Shown: positions 9,696-25,122 of the stretch, one piece after another
How the letters are laid out: every line of letters begins with the position of its first letter
How positions within the stretch are numbered: the stretch's first letter is position 1
NCBI GenBank assembly: GCA_964642725.1
Contig: CAZXQG010000005.1
Location: 16,597 to 80,596, forward strand
Origin: an uncultured Chitinophagaceae bacterium
GTDB lineage: Bacteria > Bacteroidota > Ignavibacteria > UBA10030 > UBA8401
DNA: 64,000 bases
Reading direction: 5' to 3'
Notes under the pieces: generated by a model
What the model was told of the DNA's origin: nothing
The model's input: only the letters and a program-made list of their open reading frames with translations
Database searches by the model: none
Program-made: the position numbers and the translations under genes

Positions 9696-10205
9696 CTACT
9701 TCTTTTGTAACAAATACACCAAATCGAACTCTATGCCTCCTTCCGAGTGTTCTACAATTCTTCCTATCTCTTTTCCGTCAGAAAGCAGAATAAACGTCGG
9801 CACTTTTGTCACGTGATACTTCTCCGTCACTCCCTCGCGATTTCTCTTTGACCTGTCGACGCCGTACAGTTCGATGTTCGCTTCAGGTATATGCGCTAAA
9901 GATGCCGTCTTAAAGAATTTTGGAAGTTCGCGTTTCGTGTCGCCGCACCATGTGCCGCCGATGACGATGAAGCGAATATCTTTCGCGGCTGAGGAGAGAA
10001 ACACGACGGATGCAGAGTCCGGTGTGAACGATGCAAAGTTTTTCGCGTACCAATCAAAAGAGGAGTCGGCCTCTAACAGCGAGGATGAAAACCTGCCGGT
10101 GATAATCTTCTGTCCGCGCGGTTCGACTGAAACCTGATAGGATTCGCCGGAACCACACCCGGCAATAAGTAACAATACCGCAAGAAAAACCGTTCTACGC
10201 GCCAT
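9696..10205 (-). CDS. thioredoxin-fold lipoprotein (monothiol 'WCGDT' site)
   Basis: Start at ATG 10205 gives 'MARRTVFLAVLLLIAGC' (lipobox). 'VIGGTWCGDTKRELPKF' sits at the position of the WCxxC motif; 'VPTFILL' cis-Pro loop region. Confidence 0.6.
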   Translation of the reverse strand: MARRTVFLAVLLLIAGCGSGESYQVSVEPRGQKIITGRFSSSLLEADSSFDWYAKNFASFTPDSASVVFLSSAAKDIRFIVIGGTWCGDTKRELPKFFKTASLAHIPEANIELYGVDRSKRNREGVTEKYHVTKVPTFILLSDGKEIGRIVEHSEGGIEFDLVYLLQKK

Positions 10206-16552: not shown

Positions 16553-19123
16553 TCACTGTACAACAAAATTGACAAGCTTGTTCTTGACGATAATTTCTTT
16601 CACAACACGTTTGCCGTCGACATGCTGTTTCACATTTTGTTCCGCATACGCCAATTGTTTCAGGGCCGATTCATCGATGTCGACGGGAACATTTCTCTTC
16701 GCACGAATTTTTCCGTTCACCTGAAAGACCACTTCGACCGTTGTTTGCTCCATTTTCGATTCATCGAACGCCGGCCACGGTTCACAAGCCAACGATGATG
16801 TATGCCCCAGCTTTTGCCATAACTCTTCCGCAATGTGGGGAGCGAACGGCGCAAGCAGCAGGACGAACGGCTCGAGAACTTGACGTGGACGGGATTCAGC
16901 TTTTGTTAATTCGTTCACAAGGATCATCATTTGCGAGATCGCAGTGTTGAACCTGAGCGCTTCAATATCCTCGCCAACTTTTTTCACCGTCGAATGGAAG
17001 ATGCGTTCAAGCTCGGAGGAAATTTCAACTCTCTTTACAGCGGGATCAAGAGTTCCGTCTTCGCCGACATACAAACGCCATACGCGGTTCAGAAACCGAT
17101 AGACCCCTTCCACACCGCGCGTGCTCCATGGCTTCATCTCTTCAAGCGGCCCCATGAACATCTCGAACAACCGCACGGAATCCGCTCCGTACTCTTTGAC
17201 AACCTCATCCGGGTTGACAACGTTGCCGCGCGACTTCGACATCTTCCGTGAATCTTCGCCGAGGATGATGCCTTGATGCCTTAGCTTTGTGAACGGCTCC
17301 TTTGTGCTTACGAAGCCAAGGTCGTACAACACTTTGTGCCAGAACCTGGCATACATCAAATGCAGCACCGTGTGTTCGGACCCGCCGACGTACAAGTCAA
17401 TCGGCATCCATTTGCGTTCGAGCGCAGGGGAACAGAATTGCGTGTCATTTTTTGGATCGATGAACCGAAGATAATACCAGCAGGATCCCGCCCATTGAGG
17501 CATTGTGTTCGTTTCCCTGCGCCCCTTCATTCCGGTCTCCGCATCGACGACGTTAACCCATTCAGTCGCAAGAGCGAGCGGAGATTCGGTTGTTCCGCTC
17601 GGCTGGAATTTTTTCAGTTCCGGAAGAATCAGCGGAAGTTCATCGTCGCGGAGCGGTTTCATTGTTCCGTCTTCACAATGAACGATCGGAATCGGTTCGC
17701 CCCAATAGCGCTGGCGGGCAAAAAGCCAGTCGCGCAGCTTATAGTTTATTTTCCGTTCCCCGATTCGTTCAGATTCCAGCCATCGGATAATTTTTTCTTT
17801 CGCCTCATCGACATGCAGTCCATCGAGAAACGCGCTGTTGACAGCCGGCCCGTCTTCCGTATATGCTTTTCCTTGAAAACCTTCAGGCGGCTGCACCGTA
17901 CGGAGAATGGGTAAACCGAATTTTTCCGCGAATTCCCAATCTCTCTCGTCTTGGCCCGGAACTGCCATGATGGCACCCGTGCCGTAGCCTGTCAAAACGT
18001 AATCGGCGATCCAAATCGGAATTTCTTTTTTTGTCGCCGGGTTAATAACATAGCTGCCAGTGAATACTCCGGTTTTCTCCGTGTCGATGCCGCGCTCGAG
18101 GTCGCTTTTCAGGCTTGCTTGAGTTCGATAACTCTCGACGGCTTTTTTCTGATCTCCCGTCGTTATTCCATCCACAAGGGGATGTTCGGGGGCAAGCACC
18201 ATGTAGGTCGCCCCAAAAATCGTATCCGGCCTTGTCGTGAAAATTCTTACGTTGTCATTCCTCCCTTTCACCGGGAAATTAATTTCTGCTCCCTCTGACC
18301 GGCCGATCCAATTTCTCTGCTGCTCCAATGTTGAAGCGGGCCAATCAAGTTCTTTTCCATCTTCAAGCAGCCTTTCAGCGTACGCGGTAATCCTCATCAT
18401 CCATTGCCTCATCGGCCGGCGTTCGACAGTGTACCCCTTGTCGGTCCATTCAGCAACTTCTTCGTTCGCAAGGACCGTCCCCAGAGCCTCGCACCAATTC
18501 ACTGGAATTTCGGCGATATAGGCAAGGCGGAATTGCGCGAGGAAATCATGCTTATCCTTTTTGCTTTTCCGCTTCCATTCTTCAGCGGTGAAACTTTCTC
18601 CGACAGACAGACCCTTTGTCCCTTGACGAAGCAATTCCTCTTCAAGAGTTTGTATCGGCCTTGCCTTATGGACGCGTTCGTCGTACCATGAATTATAGAT
18701 TCGAAGAAAAATCCATTGCGTCCACTTATAATATGCCGGATCGGTCGTGTCTATTTCCCGCGACCAATCGTAACTCATTCCGAGCATTTTGATCTGACGG
18801 CGGAAGGTCGAAATGTTTTGTTCGGTGGTAATGCGGGGGTGGATATTTGTCTGCATCGCATACCGCTCAGCCGGCAGCCCGAACGCATCCCAGCCCATCG
18901 GATGCAGGACACTGTACCCTTTCATCCTTTTGAACCTGGAAAGAATATCGGTCGCCGTATATCCTTCGGGATGCCCGACATGAAGTCCGGCCCCGGAAGG
19001 ATATGGATACATGTCGAGAATGTAGACTTTGGGCTTTGCTGAAGAACTATCCGTTCGAAACGTCTGATTTGCTTCCCAGTATTGCTGCCACTTGGATTCT
19101 ATTTCTAAAAAATTGTATTTCAT
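16553..19123 (-). CDS. leuS: leucyl-tRNA synthetase
   Basis: 856 aa; '[16 protein letters not shown]' (HIGH) and 'KMSKSRGN' (KMSKS). Confidence 0.97.
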
Positions 19124-19213: not shown

Positions 19214-20128
19214 TCATGGTTCATTGTTGATTGTCTTCTTAATGTATAGCATTGCCGTCCCCTCCGTCCCGATTCGAAACCTCGACTGCAGCTCTTCTAC
19301 GGTTGCGCCATTCTGTGCCATAATCGTCGCAGCAGTGTGCCGCAGCGAAAACGCTGTAATCCGGCGAACTTTTCCGTTCTTCACGCCTGCTCTCTCAAGA
19401 TACATGTTGACGCGCTGCCTGATTCCGCGTGTCGTCATTCTCTTTCCACGTGTCCGATTCCCTGCACTCATGATCAATGGTTCATTTTCTCGGGCATCAT
19501 TTCTGAAGGCAAGATATCCGAGGAACGCTTCCTTCACATCGTTAGGAAGAAGAACGGTTGTTTCTTTTGTCGTTTTACCTTTGCCCTGAACATTGAAGAT
19601 CATTGTCGAGCTAACGATCTTCAAATCGCCGATATTCGCACGGATCAATTCTATCTCCGATAATCCGCATCCGACCATCGCTTTGATGATTGCGAAGTCT
19701 CGAAACCCCCGCTCATCATTCCGATCGATCGACTGAAAAATCGCTTGAATATCCTGCAACGAGATCGTCTCTCGAGAATGCTGCTGCGGTCTCTTGTTTC
19801 CTTTTACCTCTTTTGCAGGATTCCGTTCCAGGACTTTGACCTCGACCAAATAATCAAAAAGACGCCTCAGTGCCGTAAGGTAAGTGGAGACCGAAACTGG
19901 TGCAAGCTTGATTTTTTTTATTAAATATGTCTTGTATCGCTCTACATCCGCTACACGGAACAGAAATTTTTGATCCAACGGATACCAGCGCATGAATTCA
20001 TGCAGTGAGCGTTCATACGTGCCGCGAGTTTCGGGCTTGCTCTTTCGCAGTTCTTTCAGAAATCCCTCGAAATGGCCGAGCAATCGCTTGTGAGAAATCC
20101 GGACAGAAGAAAATTGCGACGATTTCAT
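19214..20128 (-). CDS. tyrosine recombinase-fold protein (XerC/XerD-like) with non-canonical active-site residues
   Basis: 304 aa; an N-terminal SAM-like core-binding region and a C-terminal 'LRHTAATIM...LYIKK' align by eye to XerD. Ser, Phe and Ile fall at the Arg-I, His-II and His/Trp-III positions. Confidence 0.75.
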   Translation of the reverse strand: MKSSQFSSVRISHKRLLGHFEGFLKELRKSKPETRGTYERSLHEFMRWYPLDQKFLFRVADVERYKTYLIKKIKLAPVSVSTYLTALRRLFDYLVEVKVLERNPAKEVKGNKRPQQHSRETISLQDIQAIFQSIDRNDERGFRDFAIIKAMVGCGLSEIELIRANIGDLKIVSSTMIFNVQGKGKTTKETTVLLPNDVKEAFLGYLAFRNDARENEPLIMSAGNRTRGKRMTTRGIRQRVNMYLERAGVKNGKVRRITAFSLRHTAATIMAQNGATVEELQSRFRIGTEGTAMLYIKKTINNEP

Positions 20129-20264
20129 TCTCCTACAGCAGAGTTTTTAGTGGGACGTTTCGCTCATCTTTCTTCTCAATAACAGAAATTAACGAAAATT
20201 GAAGAGAGAAGCAACGAAACGCGCTGCTGGGTACCGACTCAGTTTGATAAATTTTCTGGGTGGA

Positions 20265-20311
20265 ACAGGCATTCATGCCTGTCAGATAGGTCAGACAAGA
20301 ATGTCTGACCT
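20265..20311. repeat. REP-like twin palindromic hairpins
   Basis: ACAGGCA-TTCA-TGCCTGT (20265..20282) and AGGTCAGACA-AGAA-TGTCTGACCT (20288..20311), 5 nt apart in a 310-nt intergenic region. Confidence 0.5.
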
Positions 20312-20376
20312 ACAGATACATTGAAATTAAGTCACTACCCGCTGTTGCAAGCCGTCTGACTGCTTCTATCAATTGG

Positions 20377-20404
20377 ATGGATTGAAAATCAATCCATTTT
20401 TTTT
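20377..20404 (+). terminator. orphan intrinsic terminator-like hairpin upstream of proB
   Basis: ATGGATTGA-AAA-TCAATCCAT followed by T8 on the plus strand; no plus-strand gene lies upstream. Confidence 0.55.
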
Positions 20405-22900: not shown

Positions 22901-24658
22901 TCACTCAACGCATTTCATCACAACAAGTGTGATATCGTCGGATTGCGGCGCGCCAGAAGTGTAGCGCGCAATTTCGTTTTGAATTTCATCGAGAGTGCGC
23001 TGAGCTGTCAGCGGGCCGATAGTTCGCAAAAACTCTTCAACCTTCTCTTCTGTATAATCAACCCCTTCGACATTCATCGCTTCGCTTATTCCGTCGGTGA
23101 ACATGACAACGACGTCTCCGGGAAATAGCTGAACGTCTCCCTCGATGTACGGCGCCGCCTCTCTCGTCACGCCGAGAATAATTCCCCCTTCCTTCAGCCT
23201 TTCGATTGACTTGTTCTTCCGCACAACGAAAGGATAATTATGACCCGCATTTACATAACGGAACATTTTAGTGACCGGATCAAAAATTCCCCAGCAAAAG
23301 GTGATGAATTTATCGCTGCCGGTATTGTCGCAAATGAGGCGGTTCACCCGCGAAGTCATTTCAGAGAGAGGAAGATCGAAATGAACAAGCGTTCGGATCG
23401 TTGCCTGGACATTCGCCATCAAAAGCGAAGCGGGCGCCCCTTTGCCCGACACATCACCGATGGCTATTACGCAACGCCCGCCTTCCAGAACAACGACGTC
23501 GTAGTAGTCCCCGCCAACCTGCTTTGAGGAGATGTTCAAGGCCGCAAGATCCAGTCCCGGAATTTTCGGCAGTGAACGTGGAAGCAGGCCTTTTTGAATC
23601 TCGCGGGCGATGTTCAATTCATTTTCCATCTTTTGCTTTTCGACAGCTTCGTAAAAGAGGCGCGTGTTTTCCAATGAAATGATGGCGAGATTTCCAAGAC
23701 TGTAGATGAACTCCAGGTCCGAATCCGAGTACACTCCTCCGCGAAGCCGCTCGCCAAGGCACAACATCCCTTTCACTTCATTCTGCACCTGAAGCGGAAT
23801 AAGAGCAACGATCCCCTGCTCCTCACAGGCCTCCCGAAGAGTCAACAAAACTTTTTTTCGCTGAAGGTCAGATACTAACACGGGTGAAGTGATGTTTTCG
23901 AACAGCACCTGCTTGTATTCTGAAAAATCCTGTGTATTGATCCGCGAAGCAACGGTCTCGCCGTTCCGGAGAAACACTGCATAGCGGCTTGCCCCCACTT
24001 GCCCCATCAGCGTAAACGTGAAAAGCTTCAACAGCTTTTCCCTGTCAAAAATAGCGTTGAACTCTTTGCTGAGCTCGAACAGCGTGCGCAATTCCTGGAC
24101 TTTTTCGTCGAGTGCCCGGTTGACATTCTTCACTTCCCCGAAGGCAATTCCTTTTTCAATCGCCGCTGCGGAGATGCTGATAATTGCCTCGACAAAACCT
24201 TTCTCCTCTGTCGTCAGTTTTTCTTTGCTCACACGTTTGCCTATCCCAAAAAACCCCAGGACGATGCCGTGAGATACGATCGGAAACATCCTCACAATGC
24301 CGATTTTGAAAAGCTGCACCTCATCGGGGCTCATGGTATGGGAAAGGGCAAAGCTCCTTCGTGGAACGCGCGGGAAAACAAATTCTTTTGAAGCAAACTC
24401 AACGGGAATTCCTTTAGAGTTTTCTATACGGAAGTGCTTCTCTTTCGTTTTAATGAGCACAACGCTCTTAGACATCAGGAGTTTCCCCATCAATGTTAAG
24501 AGAACGGTTCCGAGTATGAATTTCAGGTCGAGGGAAGAATTCACAATGTTGCTGAATTCAAACAACGGCGTAATATCGGCAAGGCGATTGATGTTCGGCG
24601 AATGCGTGGAAGGCTTCAAAAGGAACGATCCTTGGCGTTCATAATTCGGATGCCTCAT
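22901..24658 (-). CDS. GAF-GAF-PP2C (SpoIIE/RsbU-type) serine phosphatase
   Basis: 585 aa; the C-terminal 'GGDYYDVV...IGDVSGKGAPASLLMA...FTDGISEA...SDDITLVVMKC' are PP2C/SpoIIE motifs, and the N-terminal two-thirds look GAF-like. Confidence 0.8.
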   Translation of the reverse strand: MRHPNYERQGSFLLKPSTHSPNINRLADITPLFEFSNIVNSSLDLKFILGTVLLTLMGKLLMSKSVVLIKTKEKHFRIENSKGIPVEFASKEFVFPRVPRRSFALSHTMSPDEVQLFKIGIVRMFPIVSHGIVLGFFGIGKRVSKEKLTTEEKGFVEAIISISAAAIEKGIAFGEVKNVNRALDEKVQELRTLFELSKEFNAIFDREKLLKLFTFTLMGQVGASRYAVFLRNGETVASRINTQDFSEYKQVLFENITSPVLVSDLQRKKVLLTLREACEEQGIVALIPLQVQNEVKGMLCLGERLRGGVYSDSDLEFIYSLGNLAIISLENTRLFYEAVEKQKMENELNIAREIQKGLLPRSLPKIPGLDLAALNISSKQVGGDYYDVVVLEGGRCVIAIGDVSGKGAPASLLMANVQATIRTLVHFDLPLSEMTSRVNRLICDNTGSDKFITFCWGIFDPVTKMFRYVNAGHNYPFVVRKNKSIERLKEGGIILGVTREAAPYIEGDVQLFPGDVVVMFTDGISEAMNVEGVDYTEEKVEEFLRTIGPLTAQRTLDEIQNEIARYTSGAPQSDDITLVVMKCVE

Positions 24659-24684
24659 TCGATGTCAATGAGGGGCAAGAATTC

Positions 24685-25122
24685 TTAGTGGAGATATTTA
24701 ATAAGTCTCACGACGTTCTTTTTAGGATGAATCGTGTACTCCACTTTATCCATCAACTTCTTCATCAAATACATTCCCAATCCGCCCCGTTTGTAGTGAG
24801 ACATGTACTCTTTCATGTTCGGGACCGGTATCTGGTTGGGATTAAAATGTTTTCCATGATCCTCGATAAGAATTTCAAACTCCGGCTTTTTCATCGAAAC
24901 GACAATGTCAATTTGCTTGTCCGCGGCATAGCTGTAGGCGTGCTTGATAATGTTCGTACATGCTTCATCAACAGCGAGGGCAATATTGTTGACGTCATCT
25001 TCCTTAAAGCCGAAGACCTTTGCCGCATCGGCGACAAATTCGCGCGCCATGTTCAGCTTCTCCGTCTGGCTTGGAATGCGCAAATTCAATCGAGTTGTCT
25101 TTTGATTACCGCCGCTGGTCAA
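24685..25122 (-). CDS. anti-sigma-type serine kinase (RsbW/SpoIIAB-like, HATPase_c)
   Basis: 145 aa; N-box 'DEACTNIIKHAY' and G-box 'GGLGMYLMKKLMD'. Confidence 0.8.
   Translation of the reverse strand: MTSGGNQKTTRLNLRIPSQTEKLNMAREFVADAAKVFGFKEDDVNNIALAVDEACTNIIKHAYSYAADKQIDIVVSMKKPEFEILIEDHGKHFNPNQIPVPNMKEYMSHYKRGGLGMYLMKKLMDKVEYTIHPKKNVVRLIKYLH

Follow-up and report, generated by a model that had tools for sequence, protein, structure and literature searches.

A Xer-like tyrosine-recombinase homologue with serine at Arg-I, encoded beside leuS in Ignavibacteria

The gene, its fold and its catalytic positions

The stretch considered here, 64,000 nucleotides (nt) of contig CAZXQG010000005.1 from an uncultured bacterium of the Ignavibacteria (hereafter the window), encodes between leuS and proBA a 304-residue Xer-like tyrosine-recombinase homologue, for which we use the name YRL. 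Three of its six signature catalytic positions carry other residues, and these replacements are shared throughout its family. The gene, its two domains and the adjoining leuS are placed as follows.

19214..20128, minus strand: YRL gene, an open reading frame (ORF) of 304 amino acids with ATG start and TGA stop (Pfam, AlphaFold2 (AF2), Foldseek and the ratio of nonsynonymous to synonymous substitution rates (dN/dS))
19811..20080, minus strand: N-terminal core-binding (SAM-like) domain, residues ~17-106 (PF13495, PF13102, PF02899; four helices in the model)
19226..19762, minus strand: catalytic-fold domain, residues ~123-301 (PF00589 over residues 123-283; profile alignment to the XerD catalytic domain 5dcf)
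16553..19123, minus strand: leuS, co-directional, 90 nt downstream of YRL (TIGR00396 at 1046 bits), a probable operon partner

A match of 59 bits to PF00589 (Phage_integrase), against a cut-off of 27.1, places YRL in the tyrosine recombinase (YR) superfamily, and the N-terminal domain matches PF13495 (SAM-like) at 31 bits as well as PF13102 and PF02899. The latter domain includes the family-invariant motif PETRGTYER, with E33, T34, T37, Y38 and R40 as invariant columns. The AF2 model, generated from the family alignment, has a predicted local distance difference test score (pLDDT) of 88, and Foldseek returns XerA (E 2e-12), Cre, IntI4 and XerH as its best PDB matches, with template-modelling scores of ~0.7 against DNA-bound Cre, XerH and IntI4. 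The predicted structure hence has a YR fold, in line with the XerC/D-like label given by a first-pass annotation that was made from the letters of the window. The closest NCBIfam models are XerD (TIGR02225, 99.5 bits, cut-off 330) and XerC (TIGR02224, 98.8 bits, cut-off 335), and YRL falls below both equivalog cut-offs. It likewise stays below those of archaeal XerA (NF040815, 87.7 bits versus 220), the integron integrases (TIGR02249, 38.3 bits versus 265) and FliZ (TIGR03823, 12.7 bits versus 159 (159.3)).

The catalytic positions were assigned by phmmer alignment to XerD (1a0p) and XerA (5hxy and 4a8e), and by comparison of a 24-member family profile with these and with XerD 5dcf and XerH 5jjv; around the catalytic positions both approaches are locally gap-free. 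GLSEIEL of YRL pairs with GLRVSEL, placing Ser157 at Arg-I, and FSLRH pairs with HVLRH, placing Phe260 at His-II and Arg263 at Arg-II. RIGTEGTAMLY pairs with GHSDLSTTQIY, which sets Ile286 at His-III and Tyr295 at the nucleophile position. Lys183 (of GKG) pairs with XerD K172, and Glu160 with the structural Glu (Cre E176). Codons are listed below with the column compositions in two family sets, of 120 database homologues and of 79 genome-encoded proteins.

19658..19660, minus strand: Ser157 codon (TCG) at Arg-I (alignments; Ser 119, Thr 1 of 120; Ser 77, His 1, Ala 1 of 79)
19580..19582, minus strand: Lys183 codon, beta-hairpin catalytic Lys, kept (Lys in 120/120 and 79/79)
19349..19351, minus strand: Phe260 codon at His-II (Phe 55, Tyr 33, Leu 31, His 1 of 120; Phe 39, Tyr 20, Leu 18, His 1 in the set of 79)
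19340..19342, minus strand: Arg263 codon, Arg-II, kept (Arg in 120/120 and 77/79)
19280..19282, minus strand: Arg283 codon, for a residue that is basic specifically in this clade, three places ahead of His-III (column comparison)
19271..19273, minus strand: Ile286 codon at His/Trp-III (Ile 81, Leu 39 of 120; Ile 49, Leu 29 in the set of 79)
19244..19246, minus strand: Tyr295 codon, nucleophile position, kept (Tyr in 120/120 and 78/79); nine residues remain before the stop

Measured against the R-K-H-R-H/W-Y signature of competent members, YRL with S157, K183, F260, R263, I286 and Y295 retains three of six residues. The first-pass annotation had reached the same assignment by eye, with all residue numbers correct, and had named a shifted alignment as the outcome that would overturn it. 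Such a shift can be discarded: phmmer, the comparison of the family profile with PDB sequences, a MAFFT alignment with XerD and hmmalign all concur, and in none of the profile-based alignments do Arg, His and His fall on the catalytic positions.

XerC, XerD and XerA are thus the best sequence and fold matches. YRL shares with them a SAM-like core-binding domain joined to a catalytic-fold domain in ~300 residues, the lack of an arm-binding domain, a chromosomal, single-gene, housekeeping setting, and the retained Lys, Arg-II, Tyr and structural Glu. It differs by the replacement of Arg-I, His-II and His-III, by the missing partner-docking segment described below, and by scores of 99 bits where the cut-offs are 330-335.

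Conservation of the family and its wider clade

The first family set comprises the 120 closest database homologues (52-100% identity), from metagenome-assembled genomes (MAGs) labelled Bacteroidota or Ignavibacteriales. The second stems from a scan of one genome per species that yielded 128 carriers, of which 80 loci were retrieved; the 79 proteins examined are 78 from these loci plus the window's own, and reach down to 44% identity. Overall, about 200 YRL orthologues of 44-100% identity are at hand, in MAGs labelled Ignavibacteria, Kapaibacteria or 'Bacteroidota'. Across them Arg-I is Ser, His-II is Phe, Tyr or Leu and His-III is Ile or Leu almost without deviation, while the structural Glu is present in 79/79 genome-encoded proteins. 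Against six close orthologues the dN/dS of YRL is 0.05-0.10 (dS 0.8-1.4), and 78 of the 80 loci have an intact ORF. The first-pass annotation had also considered strain-specific decay; since the substitutions are fixed across ~200 orthologues under strong purifying selection, this is excluded, and neither relaxed selection, nor frame disruption, nor strain-specific changes of the kind that mark a pseudogene were found. The substitutions at Arg-I, His-II and His-III are ancient and held by selection.

To place the family, a profile search of 1.84 billion cluster representatives was made, which returned 945 proteins at E<1e-30, and the best 150 were aligned to the family hidden Markov model. About 45 of these 150 lack Arg at Arg-I; the remainder carry the canonical R-E-K-H-R-H-Y set (signatures here and below follow the order Arg-I, Glu, Lys, His-II, Arg-II, His-III, Tyr). 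These canonical sisters display the family-like motifs GLRTIEVxRA and SNRNxGxRLTTRSI, and those that can be named come from scattered taxa (Bipolaricaulia, Lactococcus), a distribution that hints at an origin of the clade from mobile-element integrases. Neighbour-joining trees cluster the Arg-I-less proteins separately from the canonical ones. When the seven catalytic columns are removed, the full data contain one intruder, the Arg-I-bearing P0134, and at most two intruders are seen in 14 of 20 bootstraps. Within the cluster the signatures diverge: SEKFRIY in the window's family, SEKHTHY in Rhodothermales, and TEPARLY, SEPYHIY, SQKHSII, TERNKLF and NESNTE- elsewhere. In the literature searched, we found no published description of this Arg-I-less clade, and nothing usable on YRs of Ignavibacteria or on YR pseudoenzymes.

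The Rhodothermales group was sampled through 120 proteins, 69-87% identical to the query P0131 and sharing 70-87% identity among themselves, one of them from the cultured Rhodocaloribacter litoris. All 120 have Ser at Arg-I and Thr at Arg-II; both His and Lys are kept in 120/120, and Tyr in 118/120. It is very unlikely that a conserved housekeeping protein devoid of both catalytic arginines performs YR chemistry. By parsimony, the Rhodothermales proteins then suggest that whatever function the clade has in common does without such chemistry.

The C-terminus of the family also deviates. In Cre, XerD, lambda Int and XerH structures, the segment following the nucleophile packs against the adjacent protomer, coupling the active sites. 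This tail is 19 residues long in XerD and is tightly constrained in the canonical sisters, where its median is 21 (minimum 17, n=98) and patterns such as YLHDKNRIENACEKLIDF recur. In the YRL family the median is 9 (interquartile range 6-14, minimum 3, n=197) and no pattern is conserved; the window protein has nine residues after Tyr295 and so falls short of a protomer-docking segment, and its AF2 model stops at the Tyr-bearing helix. Such a tail is too short for a trans-docking helix, an independent argument against a classical cyclic recombination tetramer.

We further assessed whether another arginine could have taken the place of Arg-I. R163, R225 of the NRT loop and R285 are all present in the canonical R-E-K-H-R-H-Y sisters; because these have Arg-I as well, the three residues are ancestral and no compensators. 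The 'SAGNRTRG' loop (N224, R225, T226) as a whole was discarded on the same ground. In a systematic comparison, few positions are basic in the Arg-I-less proteins and otherwise occupied in the canonical ones, position 283 standing out: it is Arg or Lys in 189/198 family members and in 120/120 Rhodothermales, and Met, Phe or Leu in the canonical sisters. Arg/Lys283 is hence the sole clade-specific candidate for a relocated arginine, as far as such column comparisons can tell.

Finally, the genomic position is stable. In ~65 of the 80 species loci, down to 47% identity, YRL is followed immediately by leuS in the same orientation and then by a gene for an MsbA-like ABC transporter. The median distance to leuS is 35 nt, with just 0-6 nt in many loci, and co-transcription is therefore likely. 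Neither the window nor any locus flank holds cargo genes, and a second tyrosine recombinase is absent from the window and from flanks reaching up to 10 kb, ~1.2 Mb in sum, from 80 genomes, which says little about whole genomes. No YRL relative occurs in 2.9 million viral contigs, PADLOC gives no match, and the PHROG matches are to generic integrase families only; an origin in a defence system or phage consequently found no support. With its fixed site by leuS, no cargo and no viral relatives, YRL lacks the hallmarks of a mobile-element or phage integrase and is a chromosomal housekeeping gene. The first-pass annotation had likewise described a gene between leuS and proBA without cargo, and indeed leuS, proB and proA all exceed their curated NCBIfam cut-offs.

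Exaptation and residual catalysis

Several known systems frame the interpretation. IntDOT, the integrase of the Bacteroides conjugative transposon CTnDOT and itself from the FCB group, is an active recombinase with Ser at Arg-I, reportedly drawing on an arginine from a non-canonical position. It is a mobile-element integrase with an arm-binding domain and both His kept, whereas YRL has only the SAM-like and catalytic domains in 304 residues and a chromosomal housekeeping setting, and so is not of the IntDOT type. YR-derived proteins have also been exapted as DNA-binding regulators, as exemplified by FliZ and by domesticated eukaryotic genes derived from Cryptons; FliZ, however, keeps only a core-binding-like part, while YRL keeps the whole two-domain fold. 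Bacillus subtilis XerD, which at XDS sites is a sequence-specific SMC unloader (PMC12322038), is a precedent for a Xer role beyond dimer resolution: there the protein serves chromosome organization by binding DNA site-specifically and not by strand exchange. Unlike YRL, that XerD retains a complete active site and performs recombination at dif as well.

The most direct yardstick is the saturation mutagenesis of Cre (Gibb et al. 2010, PMC2943603). Tyr and Lys were strictly required there, and each Arg accepted a single substitution, with only His or Lys tolerated at Arg-I. His-II accepted most residues, including Phe, Tyr and Leu, and Trp/His-III accepted large hydrophobics, Leu and Met being weakly active. 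The same study reports that Arg-I is Arg in just 91% of YR sequences, the others having Ala, Ser and so forth, so that the first-pass annotation overstated its case in calling the loss of Arg-I very unusual. For these sequences the authors proposed either alternative active site compositions or membership of a catalytically inactive group in which Arg-II and Tyr persist. YRL, with Ser at Arg-I and Arg-II and Tyr kept, fits this class (~9%) exactly, and is a concrete, well-delimited example of what was there a statistic only, without clade, taxonomy, context or function.

With moderate confidence, we infer that YRL is a Xer-like protein that has been exapted to bind DNA without recombining it, its catalysis being lost or almost lost. 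A vertically inherited, chromosomal, two-domain homologue of Xer type would have been recruited as a DNA binder. Arg-I would have been lost once, at the base of the wider clade, after which the other catalytic residues would have been free to change lineage by lineage: the window's lineage would have kept Lys, Arg-II and Tyr and given up both His, Rhodothermales would have kept both His and lost Arg-II, and other members would have lost Lys or Tyr. The remaining Lys183, Arg263, Tyr295 and Glu160, together with new basic residues such as Arg283, may grip the DNA backbone in a C-shaped clamp without cleaving it, and without a trans-docking tail no cyclic recombination tetramer would assemble. 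One possibility for the cellular role, by analogy, is that of a Xer-derived architectural or regulatory DNA binder. What favours the non-catalytic option is the mosaic loss of catalytic residues across the clade, a sister subclade with neither arginine, and a C-terminus too short to include the docking segment. The first-pass annotation had hedged between a non-catalytic DNA-binding derivative and a divergent enzyme; that hedge still holds, and the evidence gathered here leans to the former without proof.

Some observations pull the other way. IntDOT is active with Ser at Arg-I. Moreover, Lys183, Arg263, Tyr295 and Glu160 are essentially invariant in the window's family, and these are the residues that Cre needs most. 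As Cre tolerates the His-II replacements seen in the family, and Leu weakly at Trp/His-III (PMC2943603), the only clearly disabling change in YRL is Arg-I to Ser. In principle, the scissile phosphate could also be within reach of the clade-specific Arg/Lys283 beside the His-III loop. Also, the monophyly of the Arg-I-less clade, on which a single loss of Arg-I would depend, is of moderate strength, coming from crude neighbour-joining trees.

Such points are the basis of an alternative that we regard as unlikely: YRL could still be active, as a recombinase or as a nicking-closing enzyme of topoisomerase-like kind, through a minimal active site rewired such that a relocated basic residue, with Arg/Lys283 as candidate, stands in for Arg-I beside the kept Lys183, Arg263 and Tyr295. 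It would then be the lineage's own Xer, working on a chromosomal dif-like site. The invariance of Lys, Arg-II, Tyr and Glu in ~200 orthologues, the loss of His precisely where Cre is substitution-tolerant, the rise of Arg/Lys283 along with the loss of Arg-I, the single-gene housekeeping context typical of xer genes and the IntDOT precedent all agree with it, and Gibb et al. explicitly allow 'alternative active site compositions' (PMC2943603). It is set back by the sister subclades with Ser at Arg-I, which are also without Arg-II (Rhodothermales, 120/120), or Lys, or Tyr, and by the missing trans-docking segment. Furthermore, a His-II position that varies among Phe, Tyr and Leu has no chemical role, R163, R225 and R285 do not compensate, and only His and Lys work at Arg-I of Cre. 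More doubtful still is the specific form in which YRL cleaves DNA with Lys183, Arg263, Tyr295 and a relocated Arg283, without His, without C-terminal protomer exchange and without a classical tetramer.

We give an equally low rating to a role as a non- or weakly catalytic partner of a canonical Xer protein encoded elsewhere, in a heteromeric dif complex where the canonical partner alone exchanges strands. XerC and XerD are heteromeric, and the catalysis of one partner is dispensable at some sites (cer/psi); the equal XerC-like and XerD-like scores of YRL (99 bits each) would suit such an arrangement, as would the stimulation that a Xer protein can receive from a partner mutated in its active site (discussed in PMC2943603). 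Yet the extreme C-terminus, which mediates the XerC/XerD partner contacts and catalytic control, is absent or unconserved in the YRL family, and no second YR accompanies it in the window or the ~1.2 Mb of flanks, though xerC and xerD are usually unlinked. An integrase of a mobile element or prophage remnant, decaying to a pseudogene, is highly improbable. The generic PHROG families match, and the scattered taxa of the nearest canonical-site relatives mean that the clade may stem from such an element. For the present-day gene, however, synteny and selection refute the idea: the ORF is intact in ~200 orthologues at a dN/dS of 0.05-0.10, the site by leuS is fixed across a bacterial class, and cargo genes, a second integrase-type gene, viral-contig relatives and a PADLOC match are all wanting.

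The distinction matters since automated annotation labels such proteins XerC, XerD or integrase, and tyrosine recombinases are by default treated as enzymes. Here, a class-wide, strongly conserved housekeeping clade of Ignavibacteria and Kapaibacteria, with Rhodothermales as sister group, has lost catalytic residues in a mosaic fashion, and annotation pipelines should no longer infer dimer-resolution capacity from these genes. Should YRL be non-catalytic, it would stand as a clear example from bacteria of a recombinase fold that was co-opted at full length to bind DNA, and would put substance behind the ~9% of Arg-I-less members left unexplained in 2010. Should it have stayed active, it would define an alternative active-site solution; and with Arg283 relocated to the active site, Ignavibacteria and relatives would possess a housekeeping tyrosine recombinase, or topoisomerase-like enzyme, of a new mechanistic type.

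Upstream region and neighbouring genes

Upstream of the start codon, one sequence element is shared among related loci.

20177..20216, minus strand: conserved promoter-like block of 40 nt, CGTTGCTTCTC-N-TTAAnTTCTGTTATTG, ~50-90 nt upstream of the start codon

The CGTTGCTTCTC...TTAAnTTCTGTTATTG block is nearly invariant in the window and 10 related loci (11 in total), including loci without proBA. With a TTG ~20 nt ahead of TAAnTTCTG it looks like a promoter by its sequence; it is conserved at the sequence level without obvious covariation, and the flanks of YRL give no Rfam match at E<=1 that would indicate a structured RNA or riboswitch.

The first-pass annotation had further remarked that the gene lies beside palindromic repeats. 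Three hairpin-type inverted repeats are indeed found in the 310-nt gap between YRL and proB (20265-20282, 20287-20312 and 20377-20397), but a link to YRL is unsupported. Each occurs only once in the window, and orthologous loci have other hairpins or none at the equivalent place. Being single-copy and unconserved, the palindromes are no evidence for a recombination site, and they were dismissed as cognate binding or recombination sites of YRL; nor was a conserved site found between YRL and leuS across loci. The hairpins of the window include ACAGGCAT-tc-ATGCCTGT and TAGGTCAGACA-agaa-TGTCTGACCTA, and the variable part of the upstream intergenic region differs from genome to genome. In loci L001, L002 and L004, ~150-250 nt upstream of position 10001, inverted repeats of ~15 nt (GTTGTCGGACACCTT ... 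AAGGTGTCGGACAAC) with a common GTCnGACA core surround ~50 nt. Going by their sequence, the variable upstream hairpins may be insertions resembling repetitive extragenic palindromic (REP) elements or miniature inverted-repeat transposable elements (MITEs).

The divergent proBA pair is an insertion present in most of the window's closest relatives. Further upstream, at 22901-25122 on the minus strand, the window has a cluster of a SpoIIE-like protein, an RsbW-like anti-sigma kinase and a 698-residue ORF, which is kept across Ignavibacteria loci and mostly adjoins YRL-leuS directly, without proBA. The name SpoIIE-like is a reading of the sequence, without an NCBIfam match, and the RsbW-like match is below its curated cut-off. 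Kapaibacteria-type loci have other neighbours, namely degP, recO, corA and a gene for a small membrane protein, and the Rhodocaloribacter litoris homologue is flanked by a 2-oxoacid dehydrogenase E2 gene on one side and def/dnaE on the other; both contexts are no less housekeeping in character. A functional partner gene common to all lineages is accordingly not seen, with leuS in Ignavibacteria, corA/recO in the Kapaibacteria type and def/dnaE in Rhodothermales. The R. litoris dnaE (locus L081, 9519-14285) carries an intein with a LAGLIDADG endonuclease domain (Pfam).

Individual loci depart from these layouts. In one Ignavibacteria sublineage (L020-L023, L027, L028, L036, L057 and L075) the ~500-880 nt that separate leuS from the YRL stop contain an inserted small lipoprotein-like ORF, with a signal peptide followed by ...GTWLVYEGxLPCADCSEIKTRLE..., and in L024 and L039 the spacer is filled with ~100-nt tandem repeats (GAATTGATTCAATGATCCATTGATTCATTGAGTCAATAACGATAGA...). 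In L008 the SpoIIE-like and proBA neighbours are replaced by a tRNA-like sequence (GGGCGTGTAGCTCAGGGGTAGAGCA...), found directly upstream of the YRL homologue at ~120-200 nt ahead of position 10001. Outside the nucleotide data, a PDB entry drew our attention: chain 14 of 9i5v, 401 residues deposited as 'ribosome-associated translation inhibitor RaiA', matches the YRL family profile over residues 55-279. Its sequence is fully canonical and XerC-like (GLRRSEI, HVLRHSF, GHDSLSTTVQY), and the chain represents a fusion or else a wrongly joined gene model.

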